From the NCBI GenBank assembly GCA_965227835.1, contig OZ245768.1, positions 540,001 to 572,000 of the forward strand: a DNA stretch of 32,000 nt, written 5' to 3'. Positions within the stretch are counted from its first letter, which is position 1; each line of letters opens with the position of its first letter. Made by a program: the position numbers and the translations under genes. The notes beneath the pieces were generated by a model that saw nothing but the letters and a program-made list of their open reading frames with translations, was not told the DNA's origin and made no database searches. Below, piece after piece: positions 1 through 32,000 of the stretch. Origin of the DNA: Candidatus Saccharimonadota bacterium. Its GTDB lineage: Bacteria; Patescibacteriota; Gracilibacteria; BD1-5; UBA6164.

Positions 1-3000
1 CAGTGGTTTTTGCAGTTCAGCTCAAGTTCATGTACTCCATATCATCGGCAATAATCAAATTACAGAAGTAAAAGCAGTCATAAGTACAGGTCTCAGTCTT
101 ACCATAGCTCAGTGAATAACTGATACATGGATTCATTCTTTTGTTATAATTGTATTCTTGTAATCTTCTTTCTTCAGAACTTTTTCATCCATAAGAGGAA
201 GTCAGAATTTTTCTCTAAAGGCATTTTCTAGATACAGAATCATTACTACTCATGTCTCAACAGCATTTCAGAATAAGGATATAAATCATACCCATACAGC
301 TACTGAAAAATTAAATCATGATATATATAATGCTATAATTCAACCTATCAGACTAAAAGGGATAGAAAGAGCTACAATTCATACTAGACCTCCATCTTTA
401 TAAGCTAAAAACAGAATAAACAATATAATTAGTACTACTGTAGGAACCACTACTTGGAGAGTACTTTTTGCTCTTAGCTGATTTTCATATTGTCCTGTCC
501 ATTCAATATAGTATCATTCAGGAAGTTCTAGGTTTTCTTCTATATATTTTTTTCCATCTTCTACAAAGCTTACAAGATCTACTCATTGTACATTCATCTG
601 TACTGCTGATCTAATAACTCAATTTTCAGAGTTTATAGTTGCTGGTCAATCTATTAAAGAAATGTTAGCAACTTGAGAAAGAATTACATTTCATGTTTTA
701 GAAGAAACTTCTAAACTTTTAATATCATCTAAACTTTCTCTATAGTTATTTTTTAATCTTACTTCGATTCAATATTTCTCTCTTCCATCAATTGTAGTAC
801 TCACAGTCTTTCATCAAATACCTACGGAAATAGTATCAAGTACATCTCATTTTTTTACTCCATATTCATTTAACTTTCTTTCATCTATATCTATTTGTAA
901 ATATTTAAGACCTGTTGTTCTAATGGCTGTTACTCAGAATCCTCATGGAACATTTCACATAAGCTCCTCAGTCTCTATTGCTAACTCTTCAAGTTTCATA
1001 GGATCATCTCAAAATATTTTTATTCATACCTGAGCTCTAATACCTGTAGAAAGCATATCTATTCTTCAAATAATTGGCTGAGTAAAACCATTCCAAAGAT
1101 TATTTATTTTAATATTTCTATTCATTTCATTTATAATATCTTCTTTGGTTACTCATTCTCTCCACTCTGATTTCGGTTTGAGAGTAATAATAGTTTCAAG
1201 CATAGCCATTGGAGCTGGATCAGTCGCTGTCAAAGCTCTTCAAGCTTTTCACACAACTGTTTCTACTTCAGGTACTTCAGAGATAATTCTGTTTGATTCT
1301 ATAAGAAGATCTCTTGCTCTTCTATCACTTACATCAGGGACAGTCATTGGCATATACATGATACTTCACTCATCAAGTGGAGGCATAAATTCAGATCCTA
1401 TTCTTGTAAATAACCCAAGTCATACAACAAGAAGTATTCACGATATTGTTAAAGCTATTTTTCTTTTATTTAATGCCCATATTAAGATTGGTTCATATAT
1501 CCTTTGAAATAATCTTACGATTGGTATTTCATTATCTTTTTTTAGTTTTCATTTTAGAAAGAATACAGATAACACTGGTGCAAGAAAAAGTGAAGCAAAT
1601 AAAGCTCAAAGCATTGCAAACATATTCGTAAATGCAAGTGGCGAGAATAATTTTCATTCTTGTCATTCTAGTGCAAAGATCGGTACAAATGAAAGGATAA
1701 TAATCATAATAGCAAACATAAGTGGTCATGCTACTTCTTTTGTAGATTCATAAATTATTTCTGCTCTCTGTTTCGTACTAATATTTTCTTTTCCAAGCAA
1801 TCTATTATATGCATTTTCTGTAACTACAATCGCCGCATCTACCATGGTTCATATGGCTATAGCTATTCCTCAAAGTGACATAATGTTTGAAGGTATATTA
1901 AAAAGCTTCATACATAAAAATGTAATAAGCACTCATATAACCAAAGAAATAGCTGTTACTATTGAAGCTCAAAAATTCCATAAAAACAGAAAAAGAATAA
2001 TAACTGTAATTATAAGTTCAGCAGTAAGAATAGAACTTAATGTGTGTATTGCATCTTTTATTAAGCTTGTTCTATCATAGAATGGAACAACTTTTACTCA
2101 TTCAGGTAATCATTTTTCTAACTCTATAATTTTTGCTTCTACATTTTCAATTACTTCTAGTGGATTTTTCTTATAACGCATTACAACGATTCATCCTACT
2201 TTTTCTTCAAATTGATCAGCAAGTATTCATCTTCTAAATTCTGCTCAGATCTTAACATCAGCAATATCTCAAAGTTTGACAGATATTCAGTTCACTTCTT
2301 TTATAAAAGTGTTTTCTAGATCAGACTTTGTTTCTACAAATCATATTCATTCAATAGCGATTTCTTTTCATCACATATCGATTACTCTCCCTGAAACATT
2401 ATTATTTCAAGACTTAATAATATTTTGAACTTCCTGTAAAGTAATACTATAATTTGAAAGTTGTAAAGGATCTAAAACTATTTGAAAATTCTTTTTATAT
2501 CATCAAATAGAAGCCACTTCAGCAACTCAAGAAACACTTTGAAGTCATAATTTTATATAAAAATCTTGTAAACTTCTAAGTTCTGTAAGATCATGATTAT
2601 CACTTTCTAAAGTATACATATATATTTGCCCAAGCCCTGTCGCATCAGGTCAAAGTACAGGTTCAACTCATGGTGGAAGATCTCATTTTATAAGACTTAA
2701 TCTTTCATTTACTCTATCACGAGCAAAGTATTCATCTATGTTATCCTCAAAAATTACAGTAACCATAGATATTCCTAGCTGACTCATAGCTCTTACATCA
2801 CGAACTCCTGCTAGTCATTGCATACCAATAGTTATTGGATAAGTTACCTGGTCTTCAATATTTTTAGGAGTTTGTCATACCCATGGAGTCATTACAACAA
2901 CCTGATTTTCAGATAAATCAGGAAGTGCATCAATAGGTGTTTTATAAAGAGATACAACAGATACAATAGAAATTACAATAAAAACTATGACTGTTATAAA

Positions 3001-3039
3001 TCTATTTTCTATAAAATATTTTAAGATTTTATTTAACAT
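1..3039 (-). CDS. Heavy-metal-efflux type RND inner-membrane transporter (CusA/CzcA family). The C-terminus runs off the window start.
   Basis: ATG at 3039, with 1013 codons open to position 1 when TGA is sense. Motifs read: 'MTPWVGQTP', '[13 protein letters not shown]', '[22 protein letters not shown]' (the Gly codons at 1870-1872 and 1849-1851 are TGA) and '[17 protein letters not shown]'. Trp positions use TGG. The only long standard-code ORF here (1532..1729) is off-frame. Confidence 0.9.
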
Positions 3040-3044
3040 AATTT

Positions 3045-4886
3045 TTATTTAATAAATATTGGAGTTGTAACTACTTTTAAAGTTTCATCAAAATTACCAG
3101 TCACAAGAGAATATTCTCAATCATCTGATACTATAGTTACATCTTTAACTCATAGTTTTCCATTATCTTTTTTGTAATATACAATTTTTCTTTCTTCTTT
3201 ATTATATATTGCACTTGTTGGCACTTTAAATACATCTTCCTTATTTTCTAAACTTACTCTCACAGTAGATTTATTCGGAAGACTTATTTCATCTGAGACT
3301 TTAGCTTGAACAGTAATACTAAAGGTTTTTTCATCTATTTCAGGAGAAATACGATAAATAGAACCTGTGAAACTTTTTCCTTTATCATCAGAAAGATAAA
3401 AACTAATTTCTTTTTCAAGCTTCAAGTTTTCTTTTAGATTTTCAGGCACATAGAATTTGATCTCTTTTTTTGTTATTCTAGATAAGGATGTTTCTACACC
3501 AGAAATTCTAAAAGCTTCAGTATTAAGAGAGATTTTTTCACCCACTTCTATACCTCTTTTTGAAATAACTCAAGAAAATGGAGAAGATATTTTATAGTCT
3601 CCTGATTTTATATATTCACTATTTAAGTCTGCTTTTGCAATTGCTATATCATTTTCAATATTAATTATTCATCTATCTTCATTAGCAATAAGTAACTCCT
3701 TAGATTTCTTTAAAGTTTCAATTTCTGCAGATAATTTTGATACAGCTAATTGCTTTTCTGATTCTGTTGAATTAGATTTTGTTCATAATAATGCAATTTC
3801 ATTTTCTTTTTTAGATATTTGTAGCTCAATATTTTCAATTTTTTCTTTTTGAGCAACCTCTAAAACATTATACATATTTTTTGCATCATCTAATACTTCC
3901 TTTTGAGAAATAAGAGCTGAATTGTAAGTATTAATATTCGAGATATGAGTACTTATAGTATTTTCATCTGCACTTACAGAAATAATAGTGTTTTGTAGTA
4001 CAGTTATTAATAAACTATTAATCTCCAATAGGTCACTATATTTTTTATCTAATTCTAAATCGTTAAAATTATTATGGAATGTCTTAAGTTTATTTATAAG
4101 TTCATTTTTAGACATTGTATTCTTTGCTCAAAATTGGTCAGAAAAATCATAACTATTGATTTTTCTATAATCTAATTCATCTTCATTTCAAATATATAGT
4201 ATTGGTATTATTTTGTTATATATTTCATCTATCTTAGAAGACAATAGTTCTTCTTTTTGAGTAATGTTATTTTTACTTTCATCTAATAACTCTATTTTTG
4301 ATTTTTCTGCATTTTCAAGGTTCCTTTGTAAATTTTCAAGAGATTTTAAAGATACCCCATACTCTGATCCAAGAGTAGAATCATCTCAAATTTGAGATAT
4401 TTTAGAATTATAGTTATTAATTGTTTCTTCTAGAATAACCTCTTTTTCTTTTATTCTTTGTTCTAATTCTGCAACTTTTGCATCTTTAACTTTTATAGCT
4501 TCCGAAAGAAGATTATTTTTAGATGAGACAACTGTATTTTTAATATTAATTTTTGATTGTCACTCTCAACCAACTCATGGATTTAGAAGTATAGCTAATG
4601 TATCTCATACTTTTACATGATCTCAAATATCAACAAGTATATCTTTTACTATAGCATCTCTTCTTGGATAAATACTTGCTGTATCATTTGATATAAATTC
4701 TCAAGGAAAATAATCAGTTTTAGATATTCTCTCAGGTGTTGTATGTTTGTATACCTTTTTATTTTGTATTTTGGTTTCTTGTTCTTCTGTTTGTATTTCA
4801 GTATTATTTTGAGAAGCAAATACAATAAATGAAATAGTTAAAAGAGATATAATAAAGCCAAGAATTAACCATTTTTTATGATTCAT
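3045..4886 (-). CDS. Efflux membrane-fusion (periplasmic adaptor, HlyD/CusB-like) protein with an N-terminal membrane anchor and a very long coiled-coil insert (613 aa)
   Basis: Track ORFs 4701..4886, 3783..4115 and 3150..3545 share one frame and are separated only by TGA. I checked 3546-3782 codon by codon and found no TAA/TAG. N-terminus is 'MNHKKWLILGFIISLLTISFIVFA'. The split lipoyl-like halves are 'IVKDILVDIGDHVKVGDTLAIL' and 'ISSPFSGVISKRGIEVGEKIS'. TAA at 3045-3047 lies 5 nt before the pump ATG. Confidence 0.85.
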
Positions 4887-4910
4887 TTTTTAAAATTAAA
4901 CAACTAAAAA

Positions 4911-4934
4911 AACTTCCTTATTAAAGGAAGTTTC
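4911..4934 (-). terminator. Perfect 10-bp stem / 4-nt loop hairpin followed by a T-run on the minus strand, about 20 nt upstream of the adaptor ATG
   Basis: Plus strand reads aaacttcctt-atta-aaggaagttt, preceded by an A-run (4907-4913), which is a U-tract on the minus strand. Confidence 0.55.
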
Positions 4935-4972
4935 CATAAATAAAATCTTTATGCATGCTTCCTTAAGGTACC

Positions 4973-4993
4973 ACAAATAAACCTTTATTTGTG
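4973..4993 (-). promoter_or_regulatory. 9-bp perfect inverted repeat (cacaaataa / ttatttgtg) with a 3-nt loop, in the intergenic region. Function unknown (operator or RNA hairpin).
   Basis: Read directly from the sequence. It lies between the small metal-rich ORF stop (5010) and the adaptor start (4886). Confidence 0.3.
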
Positions 4994-5009
4994 AATAAAT
5001 AAGGAAGTT

Positions 5010-5435
5010 TTAACAGTTGCTTTTTGTACTACCGATTAATGTAATATAAAAATTATTAATCTTCGAAGCTTCTTCTCGTATTGGAGGCGAATTAAGTTTT
5101 TCAATATAATTCTCTTCTTGATCTTCTTGTATTAGAGCTAAAAATGAAAAATCTAAAATTTTTCATTTTAATAACTCTTTTTTCTCGTTTGAATTATGTA
5201 TATTTGAAACAATTCATGAATCATTAAATGGTGAAATACAACATTCATGAGTGATATCTTCACAGTCTCATTTCATAGTTTCACAACAATCATTTGATGA
5301 CATAGCCATCTTTTCTTGCATCATATTATGATGACTCATTTCTACATCATTCACAGCAAAAGAAGCCATTGCAGTAGTCATACATGCAATAGTCGTTGTT
5401 GCGAAGATTATTAATATAGAAATAAGTTTTTTCAT
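5010..5435 (-). CDS. Small secreted Met/His/Cys-rich protein (141 aa), candidate metal-binding partner of the efflux operon
   Basis: ATG at 5435 and TAA at 5010-5012, 426 nt. Signal-like 'MKKLISILIIFATTTIACMTTAMA' is followed by 'VEMSHHNMMQEKMAMSSNDCCETMKGDCEDITHECC'. No family was recognised; the function is inferred from composition and neighbourhood. Confidence 0.6.
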
Positions 5436-5502
5436 AATATTTGTTTTTATTAATTGTGAGTAATCTATTTATTTTTTTAAAAAAGTCAATTTTAGGATTT
5501 TT

Positions 5503-7530
5503 CTAATCTATTTTTAATTTATCAAAAAAGATCTTATTTCTCATTTTTGAATCATCTACTATTTTATCCCAATCAATAACTTCTATATATAAATTATTGT
5601 TTCAATACCAATCAAAGTAACCTTGTCAATCAGGCATTACTTTAAAGTTCTTTTCTCTTTGTAACCAACTCTTTACTTTTTCAGTTAATGTACAGACTAT
5701 ATATCAATAAAAAGGCGTATTTTCAGCTACTTGGATATTTTTTCATTTAGGTGTTTTATACTTTCAATCCACAATACTGTTAACATATCTAATTATTTGT
5801 TGAACAGGATCTTCCTTAGATGAAGGATTAACAAAATCATCTCTTCATGGTTTCTTAAATTCAAAAATTGTAATCGGATTTGAACTATTATTTTCTCATC
5901 TAAAAGCAATTTTTTTATCAAAAATTATTACATCTCATCTTTCGGTGTTTCATCAATTTAAAGGAATATCTGATGATATATAATCTGCGAAAGCTAATTT
6001 TTCATCAAGAACCCACATATTATGATCATTATAATCTACTGATTCGGAATCATTTTTAGTAGGAAATATAATTGTATGTAAGCTATCTTCAGATTTGTAT
6101 TTTTTAGTATCTTCATCCCATTCTAAAGACTTCTCTAATAAATCTAAGGTGAATTTCCTTGTAGCCACATAGTGTGCTAAGTCTGTTTTAACTAAATCAT
6201 CTAATGATGATACAAGTTCACGAACTTCAGATTCATTTGAAAAATCACTAGTTTTTACAAAAGTATTTACTTTCACTTTTGCTTCTTTTTCTTTTTTATA
6301 TTTTAATTCATGAAACTTTGCATCTAAATTATCTTCAGAAATTGTTGAATCTATACTATTAAGATCAAAATTTTTATATAGTGCACTATACCAAGGAGCT
6401 TTTTTATTAATAAAACTTTTTACTTTATTCACTTTAATAACTTGCTGTTCATCTAAAAAATCCTTATATAATTTTTTGATTTTCTCAGTAACTACATTAA
6501 AAATTTCTTTTTCTCATATAAAATCTTCGAAAACTTCTTCATCTTTTAAAAAATTAAAACTCTCCCTTTCTGTATCAACATTATCATCTAAGTAATCTCA
6601 ATACACATAACACTTTATTGAATAATTATTTTCTTTTTTGTCATTAGTTTCTTTTAATTTCTGATTAAAATCAGGTATAAATTTTCATAAGTTTTCTTCT
6701 ACAACTACCCTATTATGTCAACAAAGACTAATAGTATTATTTTCTATAGAATATTTAACTTTAAAAATTTTTAATCAAAACTCTATTTTATCTGCTTCTA
6801 TATTTCATTTAGGAATATGAAGTTTATTGTTATGTATAACACTTATATCTTCTTTATTTCATATCATTGAATTTAATTTTTCACTATCATATTCATCAAA
6901 TATAACTATTTCTGGACAATTAAAATCATCATCTACAAAGTACATTAATAAATGCTCTAGTAGTTTTCTTCATAGAGTTGGTACTTTTTTACTTTGAGAA
7001 TTTAGCTTCGTTATATATTGTTTTTTTAATCTTGTTAAATATAATTTAGTTCAAGTTTCTTCATCATTAGATACATCAATTATAGTACGATTAGACATCA
7101 TATCTTTTGCATTTATATCAAAAGAAAAACTGATCTTTTTTCTAATATCTCAATCTTGATAAACACTCTCAAAGTCTACCTTTTCAAAGAACTTTAAATA
7201 GAAAAATCTACCAAATCATTTACCTCAATGACTTTCAAGTTTATAATCACTTTTAAAAGTTCTAAATGATTTTTGATTATCAGAATTAAATCAAACCCCA
7301 TTGTCTGTAATAATAAATGATTCTATATCCTCTAAACTTTCCTCTTCTAATCATGATCATAATTTAGTTTGTTTACTTCTTATGACTTTTATAGATATTT
7401 TACCTTCTTTCTTTCAAGATTTTTCAAAAGCATGTATCCCATTTACAATTCATTCGTAAATAGGATAATAAACAGAAGTATTTTTTATATCATTAACTAC
7501 TCATTTTATATTGATTTCTCATATAGCCAT
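5503..7530 (-). CDS. GHKL (MutL/MORC/HATPase_c_3-like) ATPase fused to a C-terminal PD-(D/E)xK nuclease-like domain (675 aa)
   Basis: ATG at 7530 and TAG at 5503-5505, 2028 nt, in frame with track ORF 5953..6432. Bergerat motifs: 'YEGIVNGIHA' (E-x3-N-x3-A), 'ITDNGVGF' (7288-7305, one Gly is TGA) and 'HGGKGFGRFFYLKFF'. C-terminal 'RGDVIIFD...PITIFEFKKPGRDD' (EFK at 5848-5868) fits D...ExK. Confidence 0.75.
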
Positions 7531-7556
7531 ATGTATTTCTATTTATAAAATGTAAA

Positions 7557-8954
7557 CTATTTATTCCAATATTCTAATAAATTTTTTAATGCTTCTTTAA
7601 ATAGTTTTGGAGCATTTACTCAAAGAATTAATTTCCCATTCTCATTTAATAAAAAACTCACCTCAATTTCAACTATGGTTTCCTCTGTACTTCAATATAA
7701 AACAACTGATCTTAATATTTCATACTTTGGATAATTAGGTTTAATGTATAAATCTTCAATAGCATCAAAATCATCTAATTCTTTTATTCAATTAGCTCTA
7801 AATTCATATTTTTTTCATTCTAAATTTAGAATTTCACTATTATCAAAATCAATTAATATTAAATCAGGTATTGCTACTTTTTTAGATTTATCTCAATTTT
7901 TATATTCCTCTCTATCTATATATTTTTGCAATGGTATATGTTTTCATTCTTTTGTTAAAAAGTATGATTTTTCACAACCAGCATGATTTTCAAATAAAGA
8001 ATTACTGTTAGTAAAGTATTCAGTAACTATATGAATGAAAATAGTTCCTAGTTTTTCTCATTTTTTATCAAAATGCCAATATTGAGTTTTTGCAACAGGA
8101 ACTGATGAGTCTAATCCATCAAACTCTAAATTTAATTTACTAGCTATTTGAACAAATTTATTATTTCATTTAATATGTTTCTGTTCTAGTCAATGTTTTG
8201 TTATTACTATTTTTTTAGTCCATCAAAGTTTCCTTAATGTAGAAGCTATCAAACTTAAAGCTCAAATATTTGGATCATGAGCTAAACTATCACTCTTCCA
8301 TAATCTACCTGATACTTCTATTCTATCATCATATTTATCTATTAGTATAGGTACATTTCATTTTGGAGGTCTTCTCATTGAATTTTTCATTTCAATAACC
8401 TCATCAATGCTTGAAAATTTTTGTAAGTCATTATCAATATTTTCTTTTCATAAAACTTCTACTCAAAGTGTATACAAACATCTAGTTCAAAAAATATTTG
8501 TATCAGTTTGACTCTTTTTCTCTTCAACTTGAAGAGAATATAACATAATCTTTCTTACATTTGGATAGAAAAAATCAATATATACAAATTTAGAAGCTCT
8601 TTGAAATACTCAAGTATTCCTGCTTTCAGAATCATCAGTCTTAGTTTCTTCAATTGCATATAGTGGTTCATCATTCTCATTTGGTTCATCTTCTTGATAG
8701 AATAATAAGAAATCAACAAAACTAGATTTTCAACTTACTGTTTTAATAAAAATTTCTCAAATTTGTTCTGATGTAAATCAAATTACTTTGTAAGTAAAAG
8801 CAAAATTACCCTCCTTATTTAATACAGGAAGAATTCTAATGGTATCAATAAAACAAGAAATTTCATTATCAGTAACAAACTTATACAATATATTATGTAT
8901 AACTTCTCTTTTAGGTCTTTCCTCAGTTAATATCCATAGATTTTTCTTATCCAT
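7557..8954 (-). CDS. Restriction-endonuclease-like protein with two PD-(D/E)xK-like motifs (465 aa)
   Basis: ATG at 8954 and TAG at 7557-7559, 1398 nt. N-terminal region reads 'SFVDFLLF...LYAIEETKTDDSESRNTGVFQRASKF'. C-terminal region reads 'VAIPDLILIDFDNSEILNLEGKKYEF', a FokI-cleavage-domain-like position. It sits 23 nt downstream of the methyltransferase and 26 nt upstream of the GHKL gene. Confidence 0.6.
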
Positions 8955-8977
8955 TTTTAGTTTTTTTAATATTATTA

Positions 8978-10117
8978 TTAGATATTCTTTTGAAAAATAA
9001 GAATATATTGATGAATTTGGTTTGATACATATGAGAATGGATATCAGTAAGGATATAGATTAACTCATTGATCAGCCCATATTTTAGTTCACAAGTAATT
9101 TAGGTCAGGAATTTCATTTAAATCCAAAATCATATTACAATGTAGAAGATTCAAATCTTTTCATTTTGGTTGCATATCTTTTATAAAGACTACTACATGT
9201 CACTTGTTTTTCAATAACTTCATTGAATTTTCAATACTCTCTTTAAACACTCTTCTAAAGTCTTCAGATTCCATATTTCATAAATCTTCTTTAAGAGAAG
9301 TGTAAGGAGTCGCTGATGTATCTTTTTTTAATTTTATAGCCTCTCATGTTTTTTTTCTATTCATCATATCTCAATATGGAGGATCAATAAGAATTAATGA
9401 TAACTCTTCATCTCAAATTTGATTAGCTATTTTTCATGATTTTAACAGTTTTATAGAATCTCCCTGAATAGTTTTCTGCTCCTTTAATCATAAAAAGTCA
9501 TTTGCTCTTTTGTATGCATCTATAAAATCATCAGATAAGTCTATTCAAATAGCTCTTCTATTACATAGAGAAGCTCAGAGTAAAGTTCAACCTACTCACA
9601 TAAAGTAATCTAATACTAAATCATTCTCTTTAGTAAAAAATTTGATAATCCCTTCCATTAATTGAGGTGGTTTTGGAGATGGGTGTATTTTTCTAATATG
9701 ATGAGCATATCAATCCTCTAAACCTGTTGTATACCTAGTATTTATGACTGAATTCAAGAAAAAAGTCCATTCTCATCATGATAAATCATTTAATTTATTC
9801 TTTAGGTGATACTTTCTTTTATCACTAATTTGAATAACTTGCTTTGAATTACCTATTAAATATGCATTATTTATATCCTCTTTTACCCAAGTTGGAAGTC
9901 CAGCAATTTGTTCTTCTGTTAAATAGTCTACAGCTCTCGTATGTTCTTTATTATCATCATTTTTTATAATCCTAAGCTTATTTTTACACTCTTTTAATTT
10001 CCTATTCAGTAAAATTCCAAATTCTTTTTCAAGGTCATCAATAACCTCATCTTCAAATTCAGACAAATTCTTTTTACTTAATAGTGCTTTAATCTTTTTA
10101 TAATCTATAATGTCCAT
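8978..10117 (-). CDS. SAM-dependent N4/N6 DNA methyltransferase (DPPY type) with permuted motif order and an extra roughly 110-aa N-terminal region (379 aa)
   Basis: Track ORF 9776..10117 continues through TGA TGA. Motifs read: 'LSGGEWTFF', 'HPSPKPPQLMEGIIKFF', 'VLDYFMGVGGTLLGASLCNRRAIGIDLS', then 'LILIDPPYG' (9374-9385), 'LLKNKGHVVVFI' and 'HQYILIFQK'. TAA at 8978-8980, 1140 nt. Confidence 0.8.
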
Positions 10118-10121
10118 TTCT

Positions 10122-21448: not shown

Positions 21449-21451
21449 ATT

Positions 21452-21715: not shown

Positions 21716-22482
21716 TAGCTAACTGCTTGTTCATCAAAAATTTCAAAGATATTATTGTTACCATCAGGATATCCTATAAATTCTACTGGAATACTTGCTA
21801 CTGACTCAAGATCATCATCTTCAGGGAAATCAAAAGCAAGATTGCTTGTTGCATAACCTTTATAGATTTTGATACCGAATTTTTTACCATTTTCATCAGT
21901 ATTTTCAAATGTAACTTCATATAGATTAAGAGCCTTAAGTACATCTTTATAAATCACAGCTTTTGAAACATTAGGAGTGTAAGTATATGTTACTGTAATT
22001 TCTCCAGCTTGTGCTGATTTAAATAAAATATATGTTTCTCCTAGTTCTCAATTTTCTCCATCTCAAACATAAGTTGAATATGATGTAGACGTAACTGTAG
22101 TTCCATCAGCTTTTACATTTGTAATAGTGATAATACTATCATCTCCATTCTTATTATTAAGCTTAAAAGGAGTATAAGCTATACCAACTGCTCAGTAAAC
22201 TTCATCTGTTACTGTTGTAGGTATTCCTGCTGTATTTACTAAATCTCCGATTCCATCTACTTTTGCAATGTTATCTAAAAATAATTCAGCAAGTTCAGCA
22301 TTAAATTTAACCTGATCTATCTTTTTTCTTGGTGGTAGTTTAGAGTTAGCAAATTTTAATTGAGCTATCAAGAATGACACTTCTAGTCATGCTCATTTCA
22401 ATGCTCATACATTTACTCCATCTAATTTCAGAATACCATTTCACATTCTGATAGAATCAGATCTTTGCACTGGTGTTTGCAT
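21715..22482 (-). CDS. Major tail protein (255 aa)
   Basis: ATG at 22482. Track ORFs 22192..22380 and 21715..21957 are in the same frame, joined through TGA, 768 nt. The protein is beta-rich with an acidic C-terminus. Position is upstream of the chaperone and tape measure genes. Confidence 0.65.
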
Positions 22483-22555: not shown

Positions 22556-22966
22556 TTAGAATTTCTGATCTTTAAATACAAATTTAAAAGTAAGAGGTTT
22601 ACGAAATAAATTCTTTTCAGGATTAGACATATCAGGTCATACATTTACAAGTTGTGACTTTACTCCATCATCTTTTGATCTATTAAATAATCAAACTACT
22701 AGATCCTTTATTTCTTCAAACTCTTCCATATTTGTTGCCCAAACATCTATTTGAAAGGAATCTTTTCTTATTCATAGATTATTTGTACTTCATCATACAT
22801 GACTATAGCTTATAAAAGGTCTATCAGTTCCTTTTATACTTTCAAGATCTCTACATATAACATTTTCAGGTCATCAAATTTTTTGTATTAAATTTACATA
22901 ATTTGTGAGTCTATCATATATGTATTTTCTTATATCTATAAATCATAATTCACTATGTTCTATCAT
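22556..22966 (-). CDS. Tail completion / head-tail joining protein (DUF3168-like), 136 aa
   Basis: ATG at 22966 and TAA at 22556-22558, 411 nt. Contains 'RPFISYSHV...FQIDVWATNMEEFEEIKDLV'. Confidence 0.5.
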
Positions 22967-23406
22967 GAGTATTTTTTTAATAATTTACTAAAGTTACCTT
23001 TTAATATTTGAGTAAGCTCTTTTTCATTATCATTAAGTCATTGTCTTAAATAACTTCTTTCTTCTATATCATCAGTTCAGAACTCTAAGGCTCTTCAATA
23101 TTCCTCAGTTATTCACTGGTTTACTCCAACAACATATCTTCATTCTCAAATTTTCTCCATTCAAATACTTCTTTTCAAGTTTCATGTAACTCACTCATAC
23201 CAATGACCATCTATTTGTACTGGTTTATAATGACTACTTCTCTCAGGAGCTTTTCAATCTTTTCTATCAATATTATTTTTCGGTAATCTATCTTTATCTC
23301 TCGGAGTTATTTCTCTTACTTTGGAAACAAGAATATTTGATGTAATCAAGACTGATTCATCTATACTTCTTTTTAACACCTGAGTATTCAAACTAAATTC
23401 AGCCAT
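22960..23406 (-). CDS. HK97 gp10-like head-tail protein (148 aa)
   Basis: ATG at 23406. TAG at 22960-22962 overlaps the next ATG. Contains 'KVREITPRDKDRLP...VVGVNQGITEEYGRALEFGT'. Confidence 0.5.
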
Positions 23407-23410
23407 AGTA

Positions 23411-23761
23411 TTAGTTTATAAATCTTAAAATACTTTTATTATGGTCGTGTTTCTTATTCATATAGACCCTTTCTACAAATATAACTTCAAAAGTATTTGT
23501 TTCTTGCAAGACTTTATCTCATTTTTTAGGCAGAGTATCAGTTTTACAATATAATTCGTATTCCTTAGATGTAAAACCTAATTGTCATGCACTATCAAGA
23601 CTATCATCATTTATGGATTTTCATCTCTCTAAAATTATTCACTTAAATAAAATCTGAGTCGAAGAGTCTTTCACTTTCTCTCAATACTTATTCAGACCTT
23701 TAGTAATACTTTCCAGAGTAATATCTTGAAAGGCAAAGCCAAAATTATCTATAAAAGCCAT
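23411..23761 (-). CDS. Putative head closure / head-tail adaptor protein (116 aa)
   Basis: ATG at 23761 and TAA at 23411-23413, 351 nt. The call rests on size and position between the connector and gp10-like genes. Confidence 0.45.
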
Positions 23762-23768
23762 AAATTTT

Positions 23769-24362
23769 TTAAATTATTCATTTAAAAGATTTATACTTTG
23801 AAATTATCATATCGAAGTTTTGTTTAATAGCTATATTAAATCTATCTTTAATGTTAGATTCTCTCTCAGACTCTCAAAAGTAAGTTACAGAAAGGCTTCC
23901 GAGCTTCTGAGTTTTTATATTTTTATTCTCTAAACTCTCGCTATTATCTCCACTTATTCATAAATCGATTGATAAATTAATGCATAAATCTAAACTCATT
24001 TTCTCTATGTCAGAAGGAACTGTATCAAATCAAATATTATACTTAATTTCTATATTTTTCTTTCATTTTCTAGTCTTTTCTTCTAAATATAGTATATAAT
24101 TATCTATATAATCTACAGTGTAGTTATAAGACTCATTTTTAAGCTTTATATATTCAATATTATTAGCTTTGTGATCTAAGTATATCTTATTACTTCAAGT
24201 TCCATCTACTCTTGCAATTATATCTTGTTTTCATAAGTTATATCATATTTTGGAGTCTATCATATTTGTAGCTTGCTCTATAATTAAAAGAAGCTTTGAA
24301 TCACTACTATTATCAGTAATTCAAAGCTTATCTTTTAAGCTACTTAAAGTAGTATAATTCAT
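23769..24362 (-). CDS. gp6-like head-tail connector protein (197 aa)
   Basis: ATG at 24362 and TAA at 23769-23771, 594 nt. The N-terminus 'LSSLKDKLGITDNSSDSKLLLIIEQATNMI' is typical of this family. Confidence 0.55.
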
Positions 24363-24368
24363 TGTTTG

Positions 24369-24779
24369 TTATATTAATCAATTATCTGTAGCTAAATTTT
24401 TAAGTTCCTCATCTGTTTTTCATTCTAGTTCTGATTCATCTAATATTCACTCATTAACTAATAGTTCTCAGTAATTTGTAGTATCTGAATCTGTATTATC
24501 AGTTATTTTTCCTGATTCAAGTTCATCTACTAACTTATTCAGTTCAGCAACTTTCAATTTTTTATCATACTCTACTCAAGCATGATCTAGAATTTCTCTA
24601 CATTCTTTTCAAGTTCTCTGATTATCATTTTTTACTATATTTTTCTTTTCAATCTTTTCTTTTACTACTGAAAATCAAGCTTGTAAGTAATCATCTAGTT
24701 TTGATTTATCTATATCTAAGATTTGTCATTTCTTAGCTCAGTTATAGATCCTATTTTTATTATTTATAACTCTAACCAT
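24369..24779 (-). CDS. Hypothetical acidic protein (136 aa) downstream of the capsid gene
   Basis: ATG at 24779 and TAA at 24369-24371, 411 nt, open under code 25. Confidence 0.5.
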
Positions 24780-24798: not shown

Positions 24799-26010
24799 TT
24801 AAGTTGTTTTATTATTTTTAACAAGCACTGTAGCTTCAGGATTTTCTATTAAAATATCTAGTTTCATTTTATACCAGAAATTATATCCATCAGGTGCAAC
24901 TCTTTCAGGTTCAAGTTTTAAGTCAGTTTGGATTCAGATAATTACATTTTTAGGATTCGTTCCTATAATATCAGCACCATCTAAGATTACTTTATCAACT
25001 TTCATTCCAGCTTCTATATCATAGATTAATGGTGTAGTTGTTGTAATAGAATTTGCATCTATAGAAGCTACTATATAAGTCATTTGTGTAGCATTACCAT
25101 AATCTACAGTTATACTATCTCCAGCACTTATACTTCATGTTAAATCAGTATCTATAAATATACCTAAAGTTCATGCATTTTGTGGATTCGTGATATTAGC
25201 TGAAACTCATGTTTTTACAGGATTTTCATTTATCATCAATGATACTTCATTGATTTTAGTTCCTGCAATTCTATTCTTATTAGTTTCTCCATCTCATCTA
25301 TTACCATTTGGATCATTATATAATTCATCTAAATCTATTTGAGTATCAGGATCATGGAAGAATTCTATTTCTTTTTTATATTTATTTGCTAAAGCCTTTT
25401 TAGCTTGAACATATTTTTTTCTTGTAATATCTCTACCTGTAAACACATTCGTATCTGATCCATCTAGTACATTACCATCTTTTTCAATTTGGTATTTAAT
25501 ACCATCAAACATATTTAATATTCAATTATCAGCTGATGGAGTATCTACTTTTCTACCATATATTGCAGTTTCTACTAATTCATTAGCAATCTTTTTAGCA
25601 ATAATTCTTTTCATATGTTCTTCAAAGCTTTTTCACTCGATGTTATCATCAATTTCATCATCTGATAAGTAAAAGAATCACTCTACTTTCTTTGAGCTTA
25701 AGAAAATTGAATCAGTTTGAACTTTATATCATGCTTTACCTGTTTGACCATGAGTTCTTTTACCAGCACCTCAAGGCATTAAAAATTTTCAAGGAGCAAT
25801 TAATTTTGCAATCTCTTTTGTTGGTCATGTCATTGTGATCACTCTGAATTTTTTCAGTAATCAATCTGATTCATCTTTTACATAATCAATAAATTGTTTA
25901 GCTTCATCATTTTTCCAATGAAAATTTACAGGAACTCAGTTTGAATCTAAAGTGAAAGCCTTTTTTAGATCCTCTGTTTTTTGAGTTCTTTTCTTTAGTT
26001 GTATAGGCAT
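24799..26010 (-). CDS. Major capsid protein (HK97-fold type), 403 aa
   Basis: ATG at 26010 and TAA at 24799-24801, 1212 nt, in frame with track ORF 25294..25512. The call rests on position after the scaffold gene, on size, and on the C-terminal 'PDGYNFWYKMKLDILIENPEA'. Confidence 0.75.
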
Positions 26011-26033: not shown

Positions 26034-26450
26034 TTAATCTATTTTTGAGATCCTTTGATCTTTTAAAACTTTTTCTATACTTTCAACTCTATCAATTGTA
26101 GAATCAAGAGCATCAGATACTGTTTTATCATCTTCTTCTTTTTCTTTTTTAATTTTTTCTATATCTCCTGTTAATTCTTTAAGTTGTCACATAAAATTTG
26201 TTACATCATCAGAAGATAAATACATATCCACATATTTTTTGATAGCTTCTTTTCAATCATCTGACTCAAAAAACTTTTTAATATCTTTTTCGGAAGTAGT
26301 TTCAGTTTCATCTTCTACCTCTTTAGAAAGTTTAGCTTTCATTTCAGAAGCCTCTTCAAATTTCTTAATTGCTTCCTCTGATTTATCTTCTTTTAATAGA
26401 GATATACCATCAGAAAAAACTCCAAAAAATTTTTCTAGTAGTTCTTTCAT
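26034..26450 (-). CDS. Scaffolding protein (138 aa, acidic coiled coil)
   Basis: ATG at 26450 (the Met internal to track ORF 26253..26513, whose upstream extension crosses the repeat box). Continues through TGA to TAA 26034-26036, 417 nt. Confidence 0.65.
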
Positions 26451-26494
26451 ATAAATAAATTTAAAATATAAACAATTACAGACTAGTTTCTTTA

Positions 26495-26674
26495 TTATTC
26501 CCCTCAAGGTCATTTCAAATTGGATAGAATCTTATTAAGTCTTTCTTTGTTTTTATTTTTCTTTACTGTTTTAAATAATGCGAATTTATTCTCAGCTTGC
26601 TCTACTGCAGGTGTATTATCTTTTGTTACTAAACTAATTCCATCTACAAACACATTTTTTATATCTCTAGGCAT
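26495..26674 (-). CDS. Small ORF (59 aa) resembling the N-terminal 'ISLV..AN...FAI.K' segment of XkdF-type proteins
   Basis: ATG at 26674. Sequence 'MPRDIKNVFVDGISLVTKDNTPAVEQAENKFALFKTVKK...LKGPGGE', with TAA at 26495-26497, 180 nt. Confidence 0.45.
26498..26515 (-). promoter_or_regulatory. Repeated element, copy 4: box AAATGACCTTGAGGGGAA. The downstream hairpin is weak.
   Basis: The box end is 48 nt from ATG 26450. The spacing is TTGAGG-N17-AGTCTG. The box lies inside the last codons of the 59-aa ORF because no TAA/TAG precedes it. Confidence 0.55.
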
Positions 26675-26684
26675 CTTATTTTTA

Positions 26685-27053
26685 TTAAACTATAAAATAT
26701 CACTCCATTGATACTCAAACAAAATCTCAGGCTTTTACACTTTTGTATAATTCATTATCTAAGAACTTAACTCATACATACCAACTTCATTTTTTCACAA
26801 TAGTTTCTCAAACTATTATGTCATTTGGAGCTATAAAATTTTCTACAAATTGATATTTTGTTTTTTCTATTTCAGTATTTTCTTCATGATCCACATTTAA
26901 AAATTTGTTTTGCATATTAGCACCAAAATCATGAGCTGTTTTTATAATCTCTTCAGAAGTTATTACATCTCAGTTTCTATCTTCAATATCAGGTGTTAAA
27001 ATACAAAAACTCACAGTTTTATGGATATCATCTGTTTTTAGTAGTCTTATCAT
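26685..27053 (-). CDS. XkdF-like putative phage serine protease domain protein (122 aa)
   Basis: ATG at 27053 and TAA at 26685-26687, 369 nt. Sequence 'ILTPDIEDRNGDVITSEEIIKTAHDFGANMQNKFLNVDHEEN...ENFIAPNDIIVGETIVKKGSWYVGVKFLDNELYKSVKAGDFVGVSMEG'. Confidence 0.65.
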
Positions 27054-27076: not shown

Positions 27077-27124
27077 AACACTACTTTTAGTTTAGTAGTG
27101 TTTTGATTCTCTTTAAGGTCTTTT
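27077..27124 (-). promoter_or_regulatory. Repeated element, copy 5 (most divergent): box AAAAGACCTTAAAGAGAA (27107-27124) plus a 9-bp hairpin (27077-27102) and a 7-nt T-run
   Basis: The box overlaps the TAA of the MuF-like gene. The box end is 54 nt from ATG 27053. TTAAAG-N17-AAACTA places the hexamer in the hairpin loop. Confidence 0.6.
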
Positions 27125-27890
27125 AGTCTATCACTCAACTATCAGGATTAACAATACTATAATCAGTATAACATCTACAGTTAAATCAATGAGGTGCATG
27201 ATCTGTATTAGTTCATGGAAATAGTTTATTTTTAGCTATCCATCAAGCATTTTCATTTTCTATATGACTTTCTCTAGCATTACTATCTCATTGAGTAATA
27301 CTTCTTTTATATCAAGTTACTCCAAAATTTTTAGTATATTCATCATGCTGTTTTCTTGATCAGTATTCGTATGCATTTCATACTTCCATTACTGCTATTA
27401 AGCTTGATCTATATGTTGAATACTTTAAAAACTTATCATCAATCTTTTTAGCAATTTCCCCCAGAGTATCTCATTTAGATATTCAATACTCTATAATTTT
27501 TCAAATCTCTTCTCTAGTTGTTTCATCTATTTCAGATATCATTTCTCAGGCTCTTTTTTCTGCATACTCTAATTGATATTCATTACTGATTCAGATATCT
27601 AAACTAAGTCATATATTTTCTAATTCTAACTTACTTTTTTGCTCTTGCTCTAATTGTCAGAGTAAAACTATAGCTGAAAGTTTTTCTATTAATTCTTTAT
27701 TAATTTTTGGATCATTAGCTTTTTTAATATCCTTGTTATCTTTTAGTTCATCAATGTATTTTTTAGCTTCATTTTGAAAGTATTTATTGAAATAGTCTAT
27801 AAAATCATAGAAGTAATTCATAAACTCTTTTGATTTTACTTTTTCAAAATCATCTATTATTTTTTTTACTAATTTTATTTGTTTTTTCAT
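27123..27890 (-). CDS. Minor head / head morphogenesis protein (SPP1 gp7 / Mu F-like), 255 aa
   Basis: Track ORF 27657..27890 continues through TGA. C-terminus reads 'ITQGDSNARESHIENENAGWIAKNKLFPGTNTDHAPHGFNCRCY'. TAA at 27123-27125, 768 nt. Confidence 0.8.
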
Positions 27891-29146
27891 ATTCAGATTT
27901 TATTTAAAAATTTTCACCATTTTGAGTAACTTTTTTCTAGACTTTTTTCTACTTCATCTAATTCCATATCTTCTTTATTGTCAAATTCACTTCATCATGA
28001 TGTTAAAAGTTCATCTCATCAAGGTAATGGATCAAGTCAAAGTGATTCTCTTTGCTCATTAGCAGTAGTAATACCTGCTTTCTTGTATCAAACTGCTATT
28101 TTCATTTCATCTACTCAATTTTTCAAATCTACTTTATTAAAATCAATCTCGTTTATTTCCTCAATAGATATTTCTTTTAAAACTATATCATCTTCCTTTG
28201 CTTTTTTCCAAGATAAAAGTTGAGCTTTTAGTTGTCTTAGTATTTTTCACTGCAAGGGAATAATTATATCAGCATATAAACTCTCTAGAGCTACATTACT
28301 CGTAGCTTTATTTGAGTTTTTCGAGGATAACAAATCAAAAGGAATATTAGTTGATATAGCTATATCTTCTTTTAATTCTCTTTTAAGTGCTATAAATTTA
28401 TCAGGATCTATTCTTGTTGATAGATCTATTTTTCCTATTTTTCAAGTTAGAAATAAAGTATTATGAGAATTATCTATTCCTGATATTTTATCTTTTATCA
28501 TCTCTTCAATCTTTTCTACTTGCTCAGTTGTTAGATTTCAAAGTTCATCATATAGAATATTTGGTTCTATATTTCATCACTTAAAAAAGTTCTTATAGTA
28601 TTTAGTTATAAAAGCTAAAAGTACTACTTCATCAATACAAGAATGGAATAAACTATCTCAATAATGTTTATCTCCAAGTGATCATCTTTTGAAAAATAAC
28701 ACTTCATCATTGGAAAAAGGAACTTTTTTAATTCACTTCTTAGACCTTTGATAATATGCTACTTTTTTGTTGTTTTTAGAAGACTTTCTGATTGTAGGAG
28801 TCAGAATTGTATCAAATTCTAGTAAACTCTCTTTATTCCCATTTTTTAGTCTTTCTGAGAAAGAATTTCAAAAAGTAAGTAGGTTTTGAGCTATAATATC
28901 AATATCCAAGTTATCTAGCAGGTTATCTAGCTCCTCATTATCTGTTCTTATAAATCAGCTATCTACTTTTGATGAAATTTTCTTAATAATTCAAGATATA
29001 ATAGAACTATTATCATAAGCATATAATAATTCATCAAATCATACTTCAGGTTCTATTACTCAATCATTAGAGCTGAATAGTTCATCAGATCTATCATCTA
29101 TCTGTTTTGATACTCACGTTTTAAATAATTTTATTTTATCTGACAT
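27875..29146 (-). CDS. Portal protein (423 aa)
   Basis: ATG at 29146 and TAA at 27875-27877, 1272 nt. It overlaps the MuF-like start by 16 nt. Contains 'YYQRSKKGIKKVPFSNDEVLFFKRGSLGDKHYGDSLFHSCIDEVVLLAFITKYYKNFFKGGNIEPNILY'. Position is between the terminase and head genes. Confidence 0.75.
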
Positions 29147-29164: not shown

Positions 29165-29213
29165 AAAGACTAGATTTAGTATCTAATCTTTATCTTTCCC
29201 CTCAAGGTCTTTT
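29165..29213 (-). promoter_or_regulatory. Repeated element, copy 6: box AAAAGACCTTGAGGGGAA (29196-29213) plus an 11-bp hairpin with one mismatch (29165-29191) and T-run
   Basis: The box end is 50 nt from the portal ATG 29146. The spacing is TTGAGG-N17-ATACTA. The box lies inside the last 8 codons of the tandem-HTH ORF. Confidence 0.6.
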
Positions 29214-29690
29214 ATGAAGGTTTCTATTTAACTCAATTATATCATGCAGGCTTGCAACATACCATCTAATTTGGTTTCATTCAGGTTCTGAGAAACCATA
29301 TAATTTTAAAAGCTCTCTTAGATAATATGAATTAAACTTTGGTGCTACATCTCAAGCTTCTATCCTTGTAATCTCTCTTTCAGTTCACTTAATCATCTTT
29401 GCTACTTCTTTTTTTGATAGTTTAAGTTTCTCTCTTCTAGTTTTAAGTAAATTTCATAGTACACTTTCATCACTCTTTAACCATTTTTTCATATTTTCAC
29501 TATAAAATTTATCTTTTTTCAACTCGAAGAATTCATACAAGGTATCGAGAGTTTGAGCTGTATATTTTTTGTTTCTATGTCAGTTCTTAATTGAGTAAAT
29601 AGCCTTACATCATATTCAAGTTTCTTGTCTTAGCTTTTTCATATTATTTTTTTCAAGAAACTCTTTAATTCTTTGTTGTATTAAACTCAT
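29190..29690 (-). CDS. Tandem XRE-type HTH DNA-binding protein (166 aa) between the terminase and portal genes
   Basis: ATG at 29690 and TAA at 29190-29192, 501 nt. HTH 1 reads 'LRQETGIGCKAIYSIKNGHRN'. HTH 2 reads 'LKLSKKEVAKMIKGTEREITRIEAGDVAP', with TGA at the E-x-G glycine. Confidence 0.7.
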
Positions 29691-29700: not shown

Positions 29701-31176
29701 TTAAAAAGCTCTAATCTCTCATCAAGCAAATGGTGTAAAACTAAAAACCATACTATCTACCATATCATCATGTTCTCATCATGGGAAAGCAAGCAGTTGA
29801 TTTTCTAAACTTCAAACCTTTTTACTATCTGAACTAAATTTTATAAGTCATCTTTCAAATTCTCATTGGAATTCTCTAAGTCTTGTGACTTTATCTTTTT
29901 CTGAATTAATAACTATTACTGCTAATCATCTCTTTTTTAACATCCTAGCAAGAATAAGTCATCAGTTATTTTGCTCTATATAAATCAAAGAGCATTTGTA
30001 TTTGTTATACAGTTCTACCACACTATTACAGAATTTATCCTCATCTTTATCAGTTCACTCAAATGCTATTGATTCAAGTATATACTTGTGAATTTCTCAA
30101 GTGTATTTTTCTTGAGCTGTTATTGTTAATCACATTGCATCTGTTCAAGTTTTTTCTGAAAAAGCAGGATCTATTCAAAATACTATTTTATAACTCTTAG
30201 GTAGCTTATAAAAATACTTTATATCTGATCTTTTAATTATGCTTTGACCATTCTTGTAAGGGATTAAATTAAAGTTTTGATTATAAGCTATTAATCAATC
30301 TCTTCTTTTTGTCTGCAGAGAAATAAACTTATAAGCATCATCTCTGATGTTTTTATTTTTTTCTCTAGCTTCTTTATCAGTAGAAACGAATCTACTCCAA
30401 CTAATATTTCATTTGATCCTGATAGGTATCCAATAAATTTTAAAATCCTTGTTAGATTCAAAAAATTTCTTTAATCTTGGAATCCTACCATCTTCATTAA
30501 TAACATTTCATAGGAATATTTTTTGTGCAAACGAATTTAATCATCCAAATACTTCTCAAGTCAGGAATCTCATATCAGCTTCAATCAGCTCGGAGTTCTT
30601 AGTGTTTTTATTTGTATCTATATCATCAAATCATACTAAGTCAGGTCTATGAGTTCTTCCATCTCTTCATAAAAACTTCTTTCATCTAGGACTTTTTCAA
30701 ATACTCATTGCTTGAACCTTTATATTTCAATCTATCATAAATTCTCAGATTGTTTTCTTTGTTGGTTCATTTTGTTTTCTTCATTCAGGAGGAATGTATA
30801 AGTGTCAAAAGTCATGTATTAATAATTCATTTGTTTGAAGAATAACTATTATATCAAGTAGCATAGCTTTTGCTTGCTCTATCTCTGAGTTATAATGCAT
30901 TATATATCTTCTTTTCTTATATACGATACAATAAACATAATAGTAAGTTAAAAACATTGTTTTAGCACATTCTCTAAATCAAACAAAAAATATATTTATC
31001 ATATTTTGTAAGTCATCACAGTAGTCTTTATGAAACTGAGCAAGTGCATGACTAAACTCATTTGGGAAATAATACAGACAAAAAGATAGAAAATCTCATT
31101 TAAAATATTCTTTTCTCAAAAATGTTTTATCAATATTTGTAAAAAGATATTCTAGTAGTTCTCCATCTCTCTCCAT
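29701..31176 (-). CDS. terL: Terminase large subunit (491 aa)
   Basis: ATG at 31176 directly follows the TerS TAG. TAA at 29701-29703, 1476 nt. Motifs: 'FFVGFRECAKT' (P-loop region), 'RPDLVGFDDIDT' (Walker B), and the nuclease motifs 'FGIDPAFSEKTGTDAMGL' and 'AFPGGEHDDMVDSMVF'. Confidence 0.85.
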
Positions 31177-31668
31177 CTATAATAATTTATTATTTTTTAA
31201 TATTTGCTGATATTTTTGCTGATCCTCTTTATCGAGTATTGGTTTATCTCAATTATGGAATTGGAGTTTATTCATGAAGTCTTTATCCCTCATCATTAAC
31301 CACCATTTTGAATCAGCTGAATCTCAGGCTTTTATGTTCGCTCATATATTCAATCTAGCTTGCAGGGATATACTATCTTTAAGTATCCCTTTTTCCTCCA
31401 AAAATTCAGGATTTTCTTGCTGATATTGGTATAACTTACTAGTCGAAATTTGGCTAAAGTAACAGGCTTGCTCGTCTGTCATACCTACTGCAAAACACAG
31501 CTTTAATTTTTGGAGTGTCAGATCTGTCATAATCTTAGGTCTTCAGGCTCATATTTGCTTTTCTTTTTCTTCTTCTTTTGGTAGATCTTTTGATATTTGT
31601 TTTACAGTATTTTCTTTTTCTTTTATACTCAAATTTCAGACTTTTTTGTGGAATTTTTTCCTAGTCAT
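31177..31668 (-). CDS. terS: Terminase small subunit-like HTH protein (163 aa if started at ATG 31668; track ORF 31342..31530 is its middle)
   Basis: The frame is open from ATG 31668 (overlapping the methyltransferase stop, 'GATGACTAG') through 'GAGRPKIMTDLTLQKLKLCFAVGMTDEQACYFSQISTSKLYQYQQENPEF' and two TGA to TAG 31177-31179, 492 nt. The alternative start is ATG 31530. Confidence 0.7.
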
Positions 31669-32000
31669 CTAAAATTTTGTTAATATCTAAATTTCTATTT
31701 AAGCATGTAATTTCTTTTTTTCACTTTGTAACTTCATAGTATCTCTTGATAATAGTTTGAACGAAAACAGGATCTAACTCCATCATATAACAAGTTCTTT
31801 GTTTTTTCTCACTTGCTATAAGAGTTGATCCACTTCATCAAAATAAATCTAGGATATTATCTCAAATTTTACTAGAGTTATTCAAAGCATATTCTATTAG
31901 CTCCACTGGTTTTTGTGTAGGATGCACATATTCATTTACATTTGCTCTCTTCATACTCCATAGAGTAGTTCTTCATTCAGCTTCAGCATCTTTAGCTCTT
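31661..32000 (-). CDS. Phage DNA N4/N6 methyltransferase (PF01555-like), C-terminal part. The N-terminus lies beyond the window end.
   Basis: Sequence 'TLWSMKRANVNEYVHPTQKPVELIEYALNNSSKIGDNILDLFGGSGSTLIASEKKQRTCYMMELDPVFVQTIIKRY'. The two Gly of 'FGG' (31835-31840) are TGA TGA. TAG at 31661-31663. Confidence 0.85.

Follow-up and report, generated by a model that had tools for sequence, protein, structure and literature searches.

Reading of the codon UGA as glycine (Gly) instead of stop, genetic code table 25, is known from the Gracilibacteria (BD1-5) and Absconditabacteria (SR1) of the Patescibacteria, or Candidate Phyla Radiation (CPR). Campbell et al. 2013 and Rinke et al. 2013 are cited as the sources for the table (PMC8629427), the Gly assignment was confirmed by proteomics in BD1-5 (PMC4032931), and Codetta predicted it in 13 of 15 Gracilibacteria and six of six Absconditabacteria (PMC8629427). 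The gene prfB was undetected in all BD1-5 genomes examined (PMC6851277), and the Gly identity elements of tRNA(UCA) were described as G1:C72, C2:G71, G3:C70, and U73 (PMC8629427). All 27 prophages surveyed in these groups (12 from Gracilibacteria, 15 from Absconditabacteria) were dense with in-frame TGA and used code 25 (mBio 2023; PMC10746230). A gTranslate preprint places the recoded clade in the GTDB class JAEDAM01. Here, this code was examined in a 32,000-nucleotide stretch of contig OZ245768.1 (assembly GCA_965227835.1, positions 540,001-572,000, forward strand), referred to as the window, which carries a metal efflux locus, a restriction-modification (R-M) cassette and a prophage. A first-pass annotation of the same DNA had taken code 25 as established in Gracilibacteria and SR1/Absconditabacteria, as the literature above bears out (PMC4032931, PMC8629427). 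Because some Patescibacteria (class Minisyncoccia) have been reported to read UGA as tryptophan (Trp) (preprint 10.64898/2026.05.24.727570), lineage alone would not settle the code, and it is the alignment-column evidence given below that settles it. With a probability of about 0.97, the window is a piece of chromosome from the UGA-recoded Gracilibacteria/Absconditabacteria group of the CPR, in which TGA is an ordinary Gly codon (table 25), TAA and TAG are the sole stops, and decoding is alike for efflux locus, R-M cassette, and prophage.

Reading frames were compared under the standard code and with TGA as a sense codon, and the same greedy rule for open reading frames (ORFs) was applied under both codes for coding density and mean length. 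In the window (GC content 26.7%), the standard code allows no start-to-stop ORF longer than 159 amino acids (aa; 5953-6432, minus strand), exactly the ceiling given in the first-pass annotation, and the longest stop-to-stop frame has 186 codons. With TGA as sense, minus-strand frames reach 1016 codons (the frame of the efflux pump, 1012 aa counted from its first Met) and 36 back-to-back, non-overlapping genes are obtained, all on the minus strand. Each of the 35 genes with its 3' end inside the window stops at TAA (29) or TAG (6) and is followed closely by its neighbour, so TAA and TAG are the remaining stop codons of the window, as in table 25. Coding density is 20.9% with a mean ORF of 85 aa under table 11, against 97.2% and 288 aa under tables 4 and 25, which share an identical ORF structure. 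Both the back-to-back frames that the first-pass annotation had read through TGA to TAA or TAG and its dismissal of the standard-code ORF track as an artefact (21% apparent against 97% actual density) were confirmed. Every one of the 36 genes holds at least two in-frame TGA codons (570 in total), early, regulatory, and structural genes included. Reading TAG or TAA as sense on the minus (coding) strand gave frames of no greater length and was rejected. Plus-strand GC skew stays below zero along the whole window (-0.13 to -0.34), and the heavy use of TGA must account for part of the corresponding surplus of G in the coding strand.

Codon composition was used as one line of evidence on the amino acid that TGA encodes. 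TGA makes up 5.5% of codons, GGN 2.2%, and TGG 0.59%. Taken together, TGA and GGN account for 7.7%, a normal Gly content; with TGA as Trp, the proteins would contain an implausible 6.1% Trp and 2.2% Gly.

Homologue alignments were then scored column by column for the RND efflux pump (56 homologues at ~60% identity, chosen for normal Trp content) and for the terminase large subunit (TerL; nine homologues with normal Trp content, which are distant at 26-40% identity). In the pump, Gly is the majority residue in 51 of 63 TGA columns and Trp in none. Every TGA column with an invariance of at least 95% (39 columns) is Gly; among the 926 columns without TGA, just 14 are Gly-majority (Fisher p = 1e-60). 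The TGA columns behave like the pump's own GGN columns (51/63 versus 17/23 Gly-majority, p = 0.55). For TerL, Gly holds the majority in 16 of 28 TGA columns and Trp in none (Fisher p = 1e-13). By this measure, Trp is the majority in 0 of the 91 TGA columns of the two proteins and in most TGG columns (6/8 in the pump, 2/2 in TerL). When the E. coli CusA structure (PDB 4dnr, E = 1e-208) was aligned with the pump, Gly stood opposite most of its TGA codons, and in the PDB alignment of MboIIA with the N6/N4 methyltransferase, the first TGA in the S-adenosylmethionine-binding motif lies opposite Gly. A PDB search with the D12 methyltransferase returned no match at E ≤ 1e-3.

Profile scores were determined for five Pfam families with TGA translated as Gly, as an unknown residue (X), or as Trp. 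The respective scores were 740.8, 617.1, and 587.7 bits for ACR_tran; 153.6, 131.7, and 132.8 for MethyltransfD12; 87.8, 70.7, and 60.4 for N6_N4_Mtase; 75.3, 60.8, and 43.8 for Phage_portal; and 82.3, 62.4, and 54.5 for TMP_3. Gly surpasses Trp by 21-153 bits and X by 14-124 bits in five of five families, two of which are phage structural families.

Eight motifs that the first-pass annotation had singled out were located at exactly the positions it gave, with TGA or TGG where it said (x denotes TGA). TGA falls at 1870-1872 and 1849-1851 in an 18-residue motif of the RND pump, at 31835-31840 in the methyltransferase motif LFxxSGST, at 11052-11054 and 11046-11048 in FSxTxSV, at 11228-11230 in ERxETN of the XRE protein, at 7291-7293 in DNGVxF of the GHKL-like protein, and at 20365-20367, 20359-20361, and 20350-20352 in xFxFEx of the tape measure protein. 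The Trp codons of TPWVxQ (2881-2883) and KIWADQ (9077-9079) are both TGG, which, as the first-pass annotation had noted, argues against TGA as Trp.

A codon-by-codon comparison was made with a syntenic prophage (locus L001, 'Patescibacteria group bacterium UBA6164') and nine IMG/VR relatives at 80-93% DNA identity. Exchanges between TGA and GGN number 8-51 per relative (0 in one 404-codon fragment) and include TGA to GGT, a two-base change. Exchanges between TGA and TGG are absent from all comparisons, and TGG is kept as TGG. Columns, Pfam scores, codon exchanges, and composition, four independent lines, agree in supporting TGA as a sense codon for Gly and not for Trp; the earlier assignment to table 25 over table 4 holds on each of them, including the Gly enrichment of the aligned RND and TerL columns.

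Several observations weigh against this reading of the window. In about 19% of the TGA columns of the pump, Gly falls short of a majority (Ser, Ala, Asn, Asp, and others), which is attributed to ordinary divergence because 26% of the GGN columns are likewise not Gly-majority. No phylogenetic marker gene is present in the window, and placement rests on best hits and submitter names; the nearest named proteins, for the pump (82% identity outside TGA columns) and among the TerL relatives, belong to 'Candidatus Gracilibacteria bacterium', a name given by submitters. No tRNA-Gly(UCA) was found in the window or in the relatives' loci examined, whose only tRNAs are tRNA-Lys and tRNA-Cys; in the window itself, the tRNA scan found no tRNA and the Rfam scan no match. 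Finally, the molecular mechanism would be decoding by tRNA-Gly(UCA) in a cell without release factor 2, as we infer from literature on the lineage.

Among the rival explanations, the one that survives best keeps TGA as Gly and holds that table 25 is incomplete, with CGA and CGG (perhaps CGC) unassigned or reassigned to Trp. Across all 36 genes (10,369 codons), Arg is encoded by AGA 270 times, AGG 38, CGT 11, CGA once, and CGG and CGC never, and Codetta predicts CGA/CGG to Trp in Absconditabacteria and some Gracilibacteria (PMC8629427). Plain AT mutational pressure also empties these codons, however, and the single CGA (codon 120 of the gene at 5010-5435) lies in an unconserved stretch and is uninformative. 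The window holds no positive evidence for the extension, which is considered unlikely while retaining an appreciable share of the probability. TGA itself supplies 72% of Gly codons, as would be expected in a genome of 27% GC, since TGA is the most AT-rich Gly codon. That the genome has moved to a more advanced code change than plain table 25, with TGA exceeding all GGN codons together and CGA, CGG, and CGC vanished and either unassigned or taken for Trp, is slightly more doubtful again; if true, the code of the organism and its prophage would depart from the standard code in more than one way.

Much less probable, and in fact very improbable, is TGA as Trp (table 4), as in Mycoplasmatales, some insect endosymbionts, and some Minisyncoccia. 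In its favour, tables 4 and 25 yield identical ORFs and the same coding density, UGA as Trp has been reported within the Patescibacteria themselves (the Minisyncoccia preprint cited above), and entries for these same proteins in the public protein collection carry Trp at TGA. The two tables are told apart by the homologues with normal Trp content, the loss of bits in every Pfam family, the 6.1% Trp and 2.2% Gly that would result, and the many TGA-GGN exchanges beside none with TGG, all of which go against Trp, and the database entries stem from a gene-calling heuristic that offers table 4 alone.

The pump (1-3039) and most TerL relatives (P0001-P0003, P0121-P0181) appear among public proteins with Trp at each TGA, giving 5-7.6% Trp and 0.2-2.4% Gly. 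Such entries are table-4 mistranslations of table-25 genes and originate from gene-calling heuristics that test table 4 only. The code-4 translations of some related phage TerL proteins contain ~7% Trp and 0.2-0.4% Gly, and TGA apparently makes up more than 90% of their Gly codons.

With TGA read as Gly, the following features were assigned in the window (Pfam, PADLOC, and PHROG matches in brackets).

1-3039, minus strand: CusA/CzcA-type RND heavy-metal efflux pump, first 1012 of ~1046 aa, 3' end beyond the left edge, 63 TGA (Pfam ACR_tran; PDB CusA 4dnr; public protein P0001)
3045-4886, minus strand: membrane-fusion (HlyD/CusB-like) protein, 613 aa, 14 TGA (Pfam HlyD_3, HlyD_D23); adjoins the pump also in loci L012 and L013
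5010-5435, minus strand: small protein (141 aa) rich in Cys, His, and Met, conserved ahead of the efflux pair (tblastn identity 74% to L013, 45% to L012)
5503-7530, minus strand: protein with a weak GHKL-ATPase-like N-terminus, 675 aa, 29 TGA (Pfam HATPase_c 16.8 bits, below cut-off)
7557-8954, minus strand: Type II restriction endonuclease, 465 aa, 19 TGA (PADLOC PDLC03445 REase_II, 219.9 bits, E = 1.7e-65)
8978-10117, minus strand: N6/N4 DNA methyltransferase, 379 aa, 18 TGA (Pfam N6_N4_Mtase, 87.8 bits with Gly; PADLOC MTase_II, 512.8 bits)
10122-11156, minus strand: D12-class (Dam-like) N6-adenine methyltransferase, 344 aa, 10 TGA (Pfam MethyltransfD12, 153.6 bits with Gly; PADLOC, 460.8 bits)
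11156-11368, minus strand: XRE-family helix-turn-helix (HTH) protein, 70 aa, 4 TGA (Pfam HTH_3, 45.7 bits)
11443-11955, minus strand: M15-family peptidase, likely the phage endolysin, 170 aa (Pfam Peptidase_M15_4, 30.9 bits)
11974-12309, minus strand: staphylococcal-nuclease-like protein, 111 aa (Pfam SNase, 43.9 bits)
12311-13844, minus strand: five small phage ORFs (126, 70, 80, 85, and 137 aa), 3-7 TGA each
13847-16063, minus strand: glycine-rich tail-fibre-like protein, 738 aa, with 164 Gly encoded by 120 TGA (16% of codons) and 44 GGN
16127-17155, minus strand: tail-associated protein, 342 aa, assigned mainly by position (Pfam Prophage_tailD1, 18.3 bits, below cut-off)
17155-18027, minus strand: distal tail protein (Dit), 290 aa (Pfam SPP1_Dit, 27 bits)
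18037-20937, minus strand: tape measure protein, 966 aa, 52 TGA (Pfam TMP_3, 82.3 bits with Gly)
20930-22482, minus strand: two small proteins of 150 and 87 aa at the place of the tail chaperones, plus a 255-aa candidate major tail protein, assigned by position and conservation in L001 (44-69% identity), with no family match
22556-24779, minus strand: connector module of tail terminator, tail completion/Neck1 protein, 116-aa ORF, head-tail adaptor, and 136-aa ORF (PHROGs 347, 5, 442)
24799-26010, minus strand: major capsid or virion structural protein, 403 aa (phrog_1623, 120.3 bits)
26034-27053, minus strand: acidic protein in the scaffold position (159 aa, by position) and head maturation protease domain (122 aa; phrog_3017, 81.9 bits)
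27123-29146, minus strand: Mu-F-like head morphogenesis protein (255 aa; Pfam Phage_Mu_F, 31.6 bits) and portal protein (423 aa, 24 TGA; Pfam Phage_portal, 75.3 bits with Gly)
29190-29690, minus strand: HTH transcriptional regulator, 166 aa (phrog_8 and related families)
29701-31668, minus strand: terminase large subunit (491 aa, 30 TGA, gene at 29701-31176; Pfam Terminase_6C, 31.9 bits with Gly) and small subunit (163 aa; phrog_4102)
31661-31999, minus strand: DNA methyltransferase, C-terminal 112 aa, start beyond the right edge (Pfam N6_N4_Mtase, 55.5 bits)

On the basis of these matches, the first 5.5 kb is predicted to be a conserved copper/heavy-metal RND efflux locus. Positions 1-5493 are syntenic with L012 and L013 (88% DNA identity to L013 over the pump), where the pump's neighbours are copper-oxidase, P-type ATPase, and ArsR-type genes. 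The gene of the 141-aa Cys/His/Met-rich protein is the last that is syntenic with relatives; DNA synteny with L013 stops at ~5493, and the window to the right of this point is accessory. The 675-aa protein with the DNGVxF motif, situated between the efflux locus and the R-M cassette, had no PADLOC match and no Pfam or PHROG assignment and is possibly a defence-associated ATPase. The genes at 7557-11368 are predicted to form a complete Type II R-M cassette of endonuclease, two methyltransferases (N6/N4 and D12), and XRE protein. Because the stop of the XRE gene overlaps the start of the D12 methyltransferase gene by 1 nucleotide, the XRE protein is, from this gene position, probably the controller (C) protein of the cassette rather than a phage repressor.

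The genes from ~11.4 kb onward are predicted to make up most of a temperate prophage of siphovirus type, which is probably integrated and reaches beyond 32 kb. Its hallmark genes for terminase, portal, capsid, and tail contain 1.3-16% TGA codons each, and the left neighbours of the prophage on the same contig are host genes. The orthologue of the methyltransferase at the right edge has 448 aa in L001 (8175-9521 of that locus), and beyond it L001 carries replication and recombination genes, RecT, an exonuclease, an ImmA-like peptidase with an XRE repressor, and a large serine recombinase. The L001 flank (1-9521) contains host truB followed by the large serine recombinase, with an adjoining tRNA-Lys(UUU), and the same tRNA-Lys flanks L014 (1216-1291) and L020 (116-191), which suggests that it is a conserved integration site for the related temperate phage family. 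From the recombinase and repressor region of L001 and the tRNA-Lys flanks, the family would therefore be temperate, with the lysogeny end of the window's prophage lying beyond position 32000.

Two of the prophage assignments call for comment. Neither Pfam nor PHROGs returned a match for the 738-aa protein, which is presumed to be a tail fibre because it comes after Dit and the tail protein; its C-terminal ~270 aa are ~50% Gly with a run of ~20 consecutive Gly, a tract that the standard code would turn into closely packed stops. The HTH regulator gene occupies an unusual place within the packaging module, between TerL and portal, and is kept there in L001. Of the five small phage ORFs, only the 137-aa protein matched PHROGs, in families of unknown function.

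Among the TerL homologues (P0121-P0194), those at an identity of at least ~41% are all encoded on TGA-recoded contigs, and normal Trp content occurs only in the nine at 26-40%; the terminase clade of the window appears confined to TGA-recoded hosts or phages. A contig from an 'Alphaproteobacteria bacterium' metagenome-assembled genome (L002; JAZUBA010000076.1, 32% GC) encodes a TerL at 10001-11383 with 38% identity and many in-frame TGA, and is probably a TGA-recoded contig mis-binned as Alphaproteobacteria. It was dropped as a standard-code control on account of the in-frame TGA of its own TerL, and the homologues with normal Trp content were used instead. A more distant group of phages (L002 and IMG/VR loci L022 and L024-L029) has a lower TGA density.

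TGA accounts for 72.6% of Gly codons in the host-like part of the window (1-11156) and 71.4% in the phage-like part. A public protein (P0001) that is identical to the pump outside TGA columns is encoded on a contig of 1,489,121 base pairs, which indicates a chromosome and not a free phage. These results bear on the explanation that only the phage is recoded, in which the virus of a standard-code host would time its late genes through TGA by means of a suppressor tRNA or release factor that it encodes itself. Phage-like sequence occupies about two thirds of the window, and phage-specific recoding of stop codons is known (PMC10746230), yet the conserved chromosomal genes of the efflux locus (pump, membrane-fusion protein, 141-aa protein) carry TGA at the same rate as the phage genes, these host genes are syntenic with recoded non-phage loci of relatives, the pump belongs to a megabase-scale contig, and TGA is not restricted to any class of phage gene. 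No suppressor tRNA, release factor, or synthetase was found among the tRNA scan, Pfam, and PHROG annotations of the window (prophage up to 32000), and no UCA-anticodon tRNA in 16 related phage loci, where the flanking tRNA-Lys is the only tRNA. Phage-only recoding has accordingly little more than a nominal chance, and the uniform recoding put forward in the first-pass annotation is upheld, both by the TGA shares and by the recoded syntenic host loci. Since the prophage shows no tRNA in the window and carries TGA at a host-like rate, it most likely relies on the decoding machinery of its host and would itself lack a code-switching system.

The view that the TGA stops are real and the long frames accidental, the DNA being decayed, non-coding, or an artefact of assembly, is effectively without probability: it would account for the absence of any standard-code ORF above 159 aa, but the TGA-sense frames match curated families over their full length (ACR_tran with 741 bits across the entire model, portal, tape measure protein, methyltransferases), 200 shuffles never gave a TGA-sense frame of more than 214 codons against 1016 observed, and the frames are conserved among orthologues from many independent assemblies.

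For the window as a table-25 chromosome segment, the consequences are practical rather than conceptual. The standard-code ORF track, and the gene calls and homology searches that depend on it, are invalid here, and the table-4-style fallback of common pipelines places ~6% Trp where Gly belongs. Translated in this way, the pump loses 153 Pfam bits relative to Gly; homology scores fall, and structure prediction would be misled. The prophage adds another temperate phage that uses the same altered code as its CPR host and brings no decoding machinery itself, which fits the published prophages locked to code 25.

Compared with phage-specific recoding in standard-code hosts, where late genes are recoded at TAG or TGA (PMC10746230), the window shares structural genes with in-frame standard stops and differs in that host genes are equally recoded, the recoding is not limited to late genes, and no phage tRNA, synthetase, or release factor was seen. 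With table 4 (Mycoplasmatales, insect endosymbionts, some Minisyncoccia), it shares TGA as a sense codon, low GC, and an identical ORF structure; the amino acid differs, as is evident from the absence of Trp-majority TGA columns and of TGA-TGG exchanges and from the lower Pfam scores with Trp. The code-25 prophages (PMC10746230) have in common with this one TGA-dense portal, terminase, and tail genes, a probable integration in a recoded chromosome, and no suppressor tRNA, although the window covers the lysis-to-terminase part only and the integrase end is seen in the relatives L001, L014, and L020. Closest of all is table 25 of the Gracilibacteria (BD1-5) and Absconditabacteria (SR1), with TGA as sense in all genes, Gly in TGA columns, TGG as Trp, only TAA and TAG as stops, and low GC (27%). 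Both the code of this lineage and its code-25 prophages were already known, and the window shows nothing new in kind; what sets it apart within table 25 is that TGA is the majority Gly codon (72%) and that CGA, CGG, and CGC are essentially absent.

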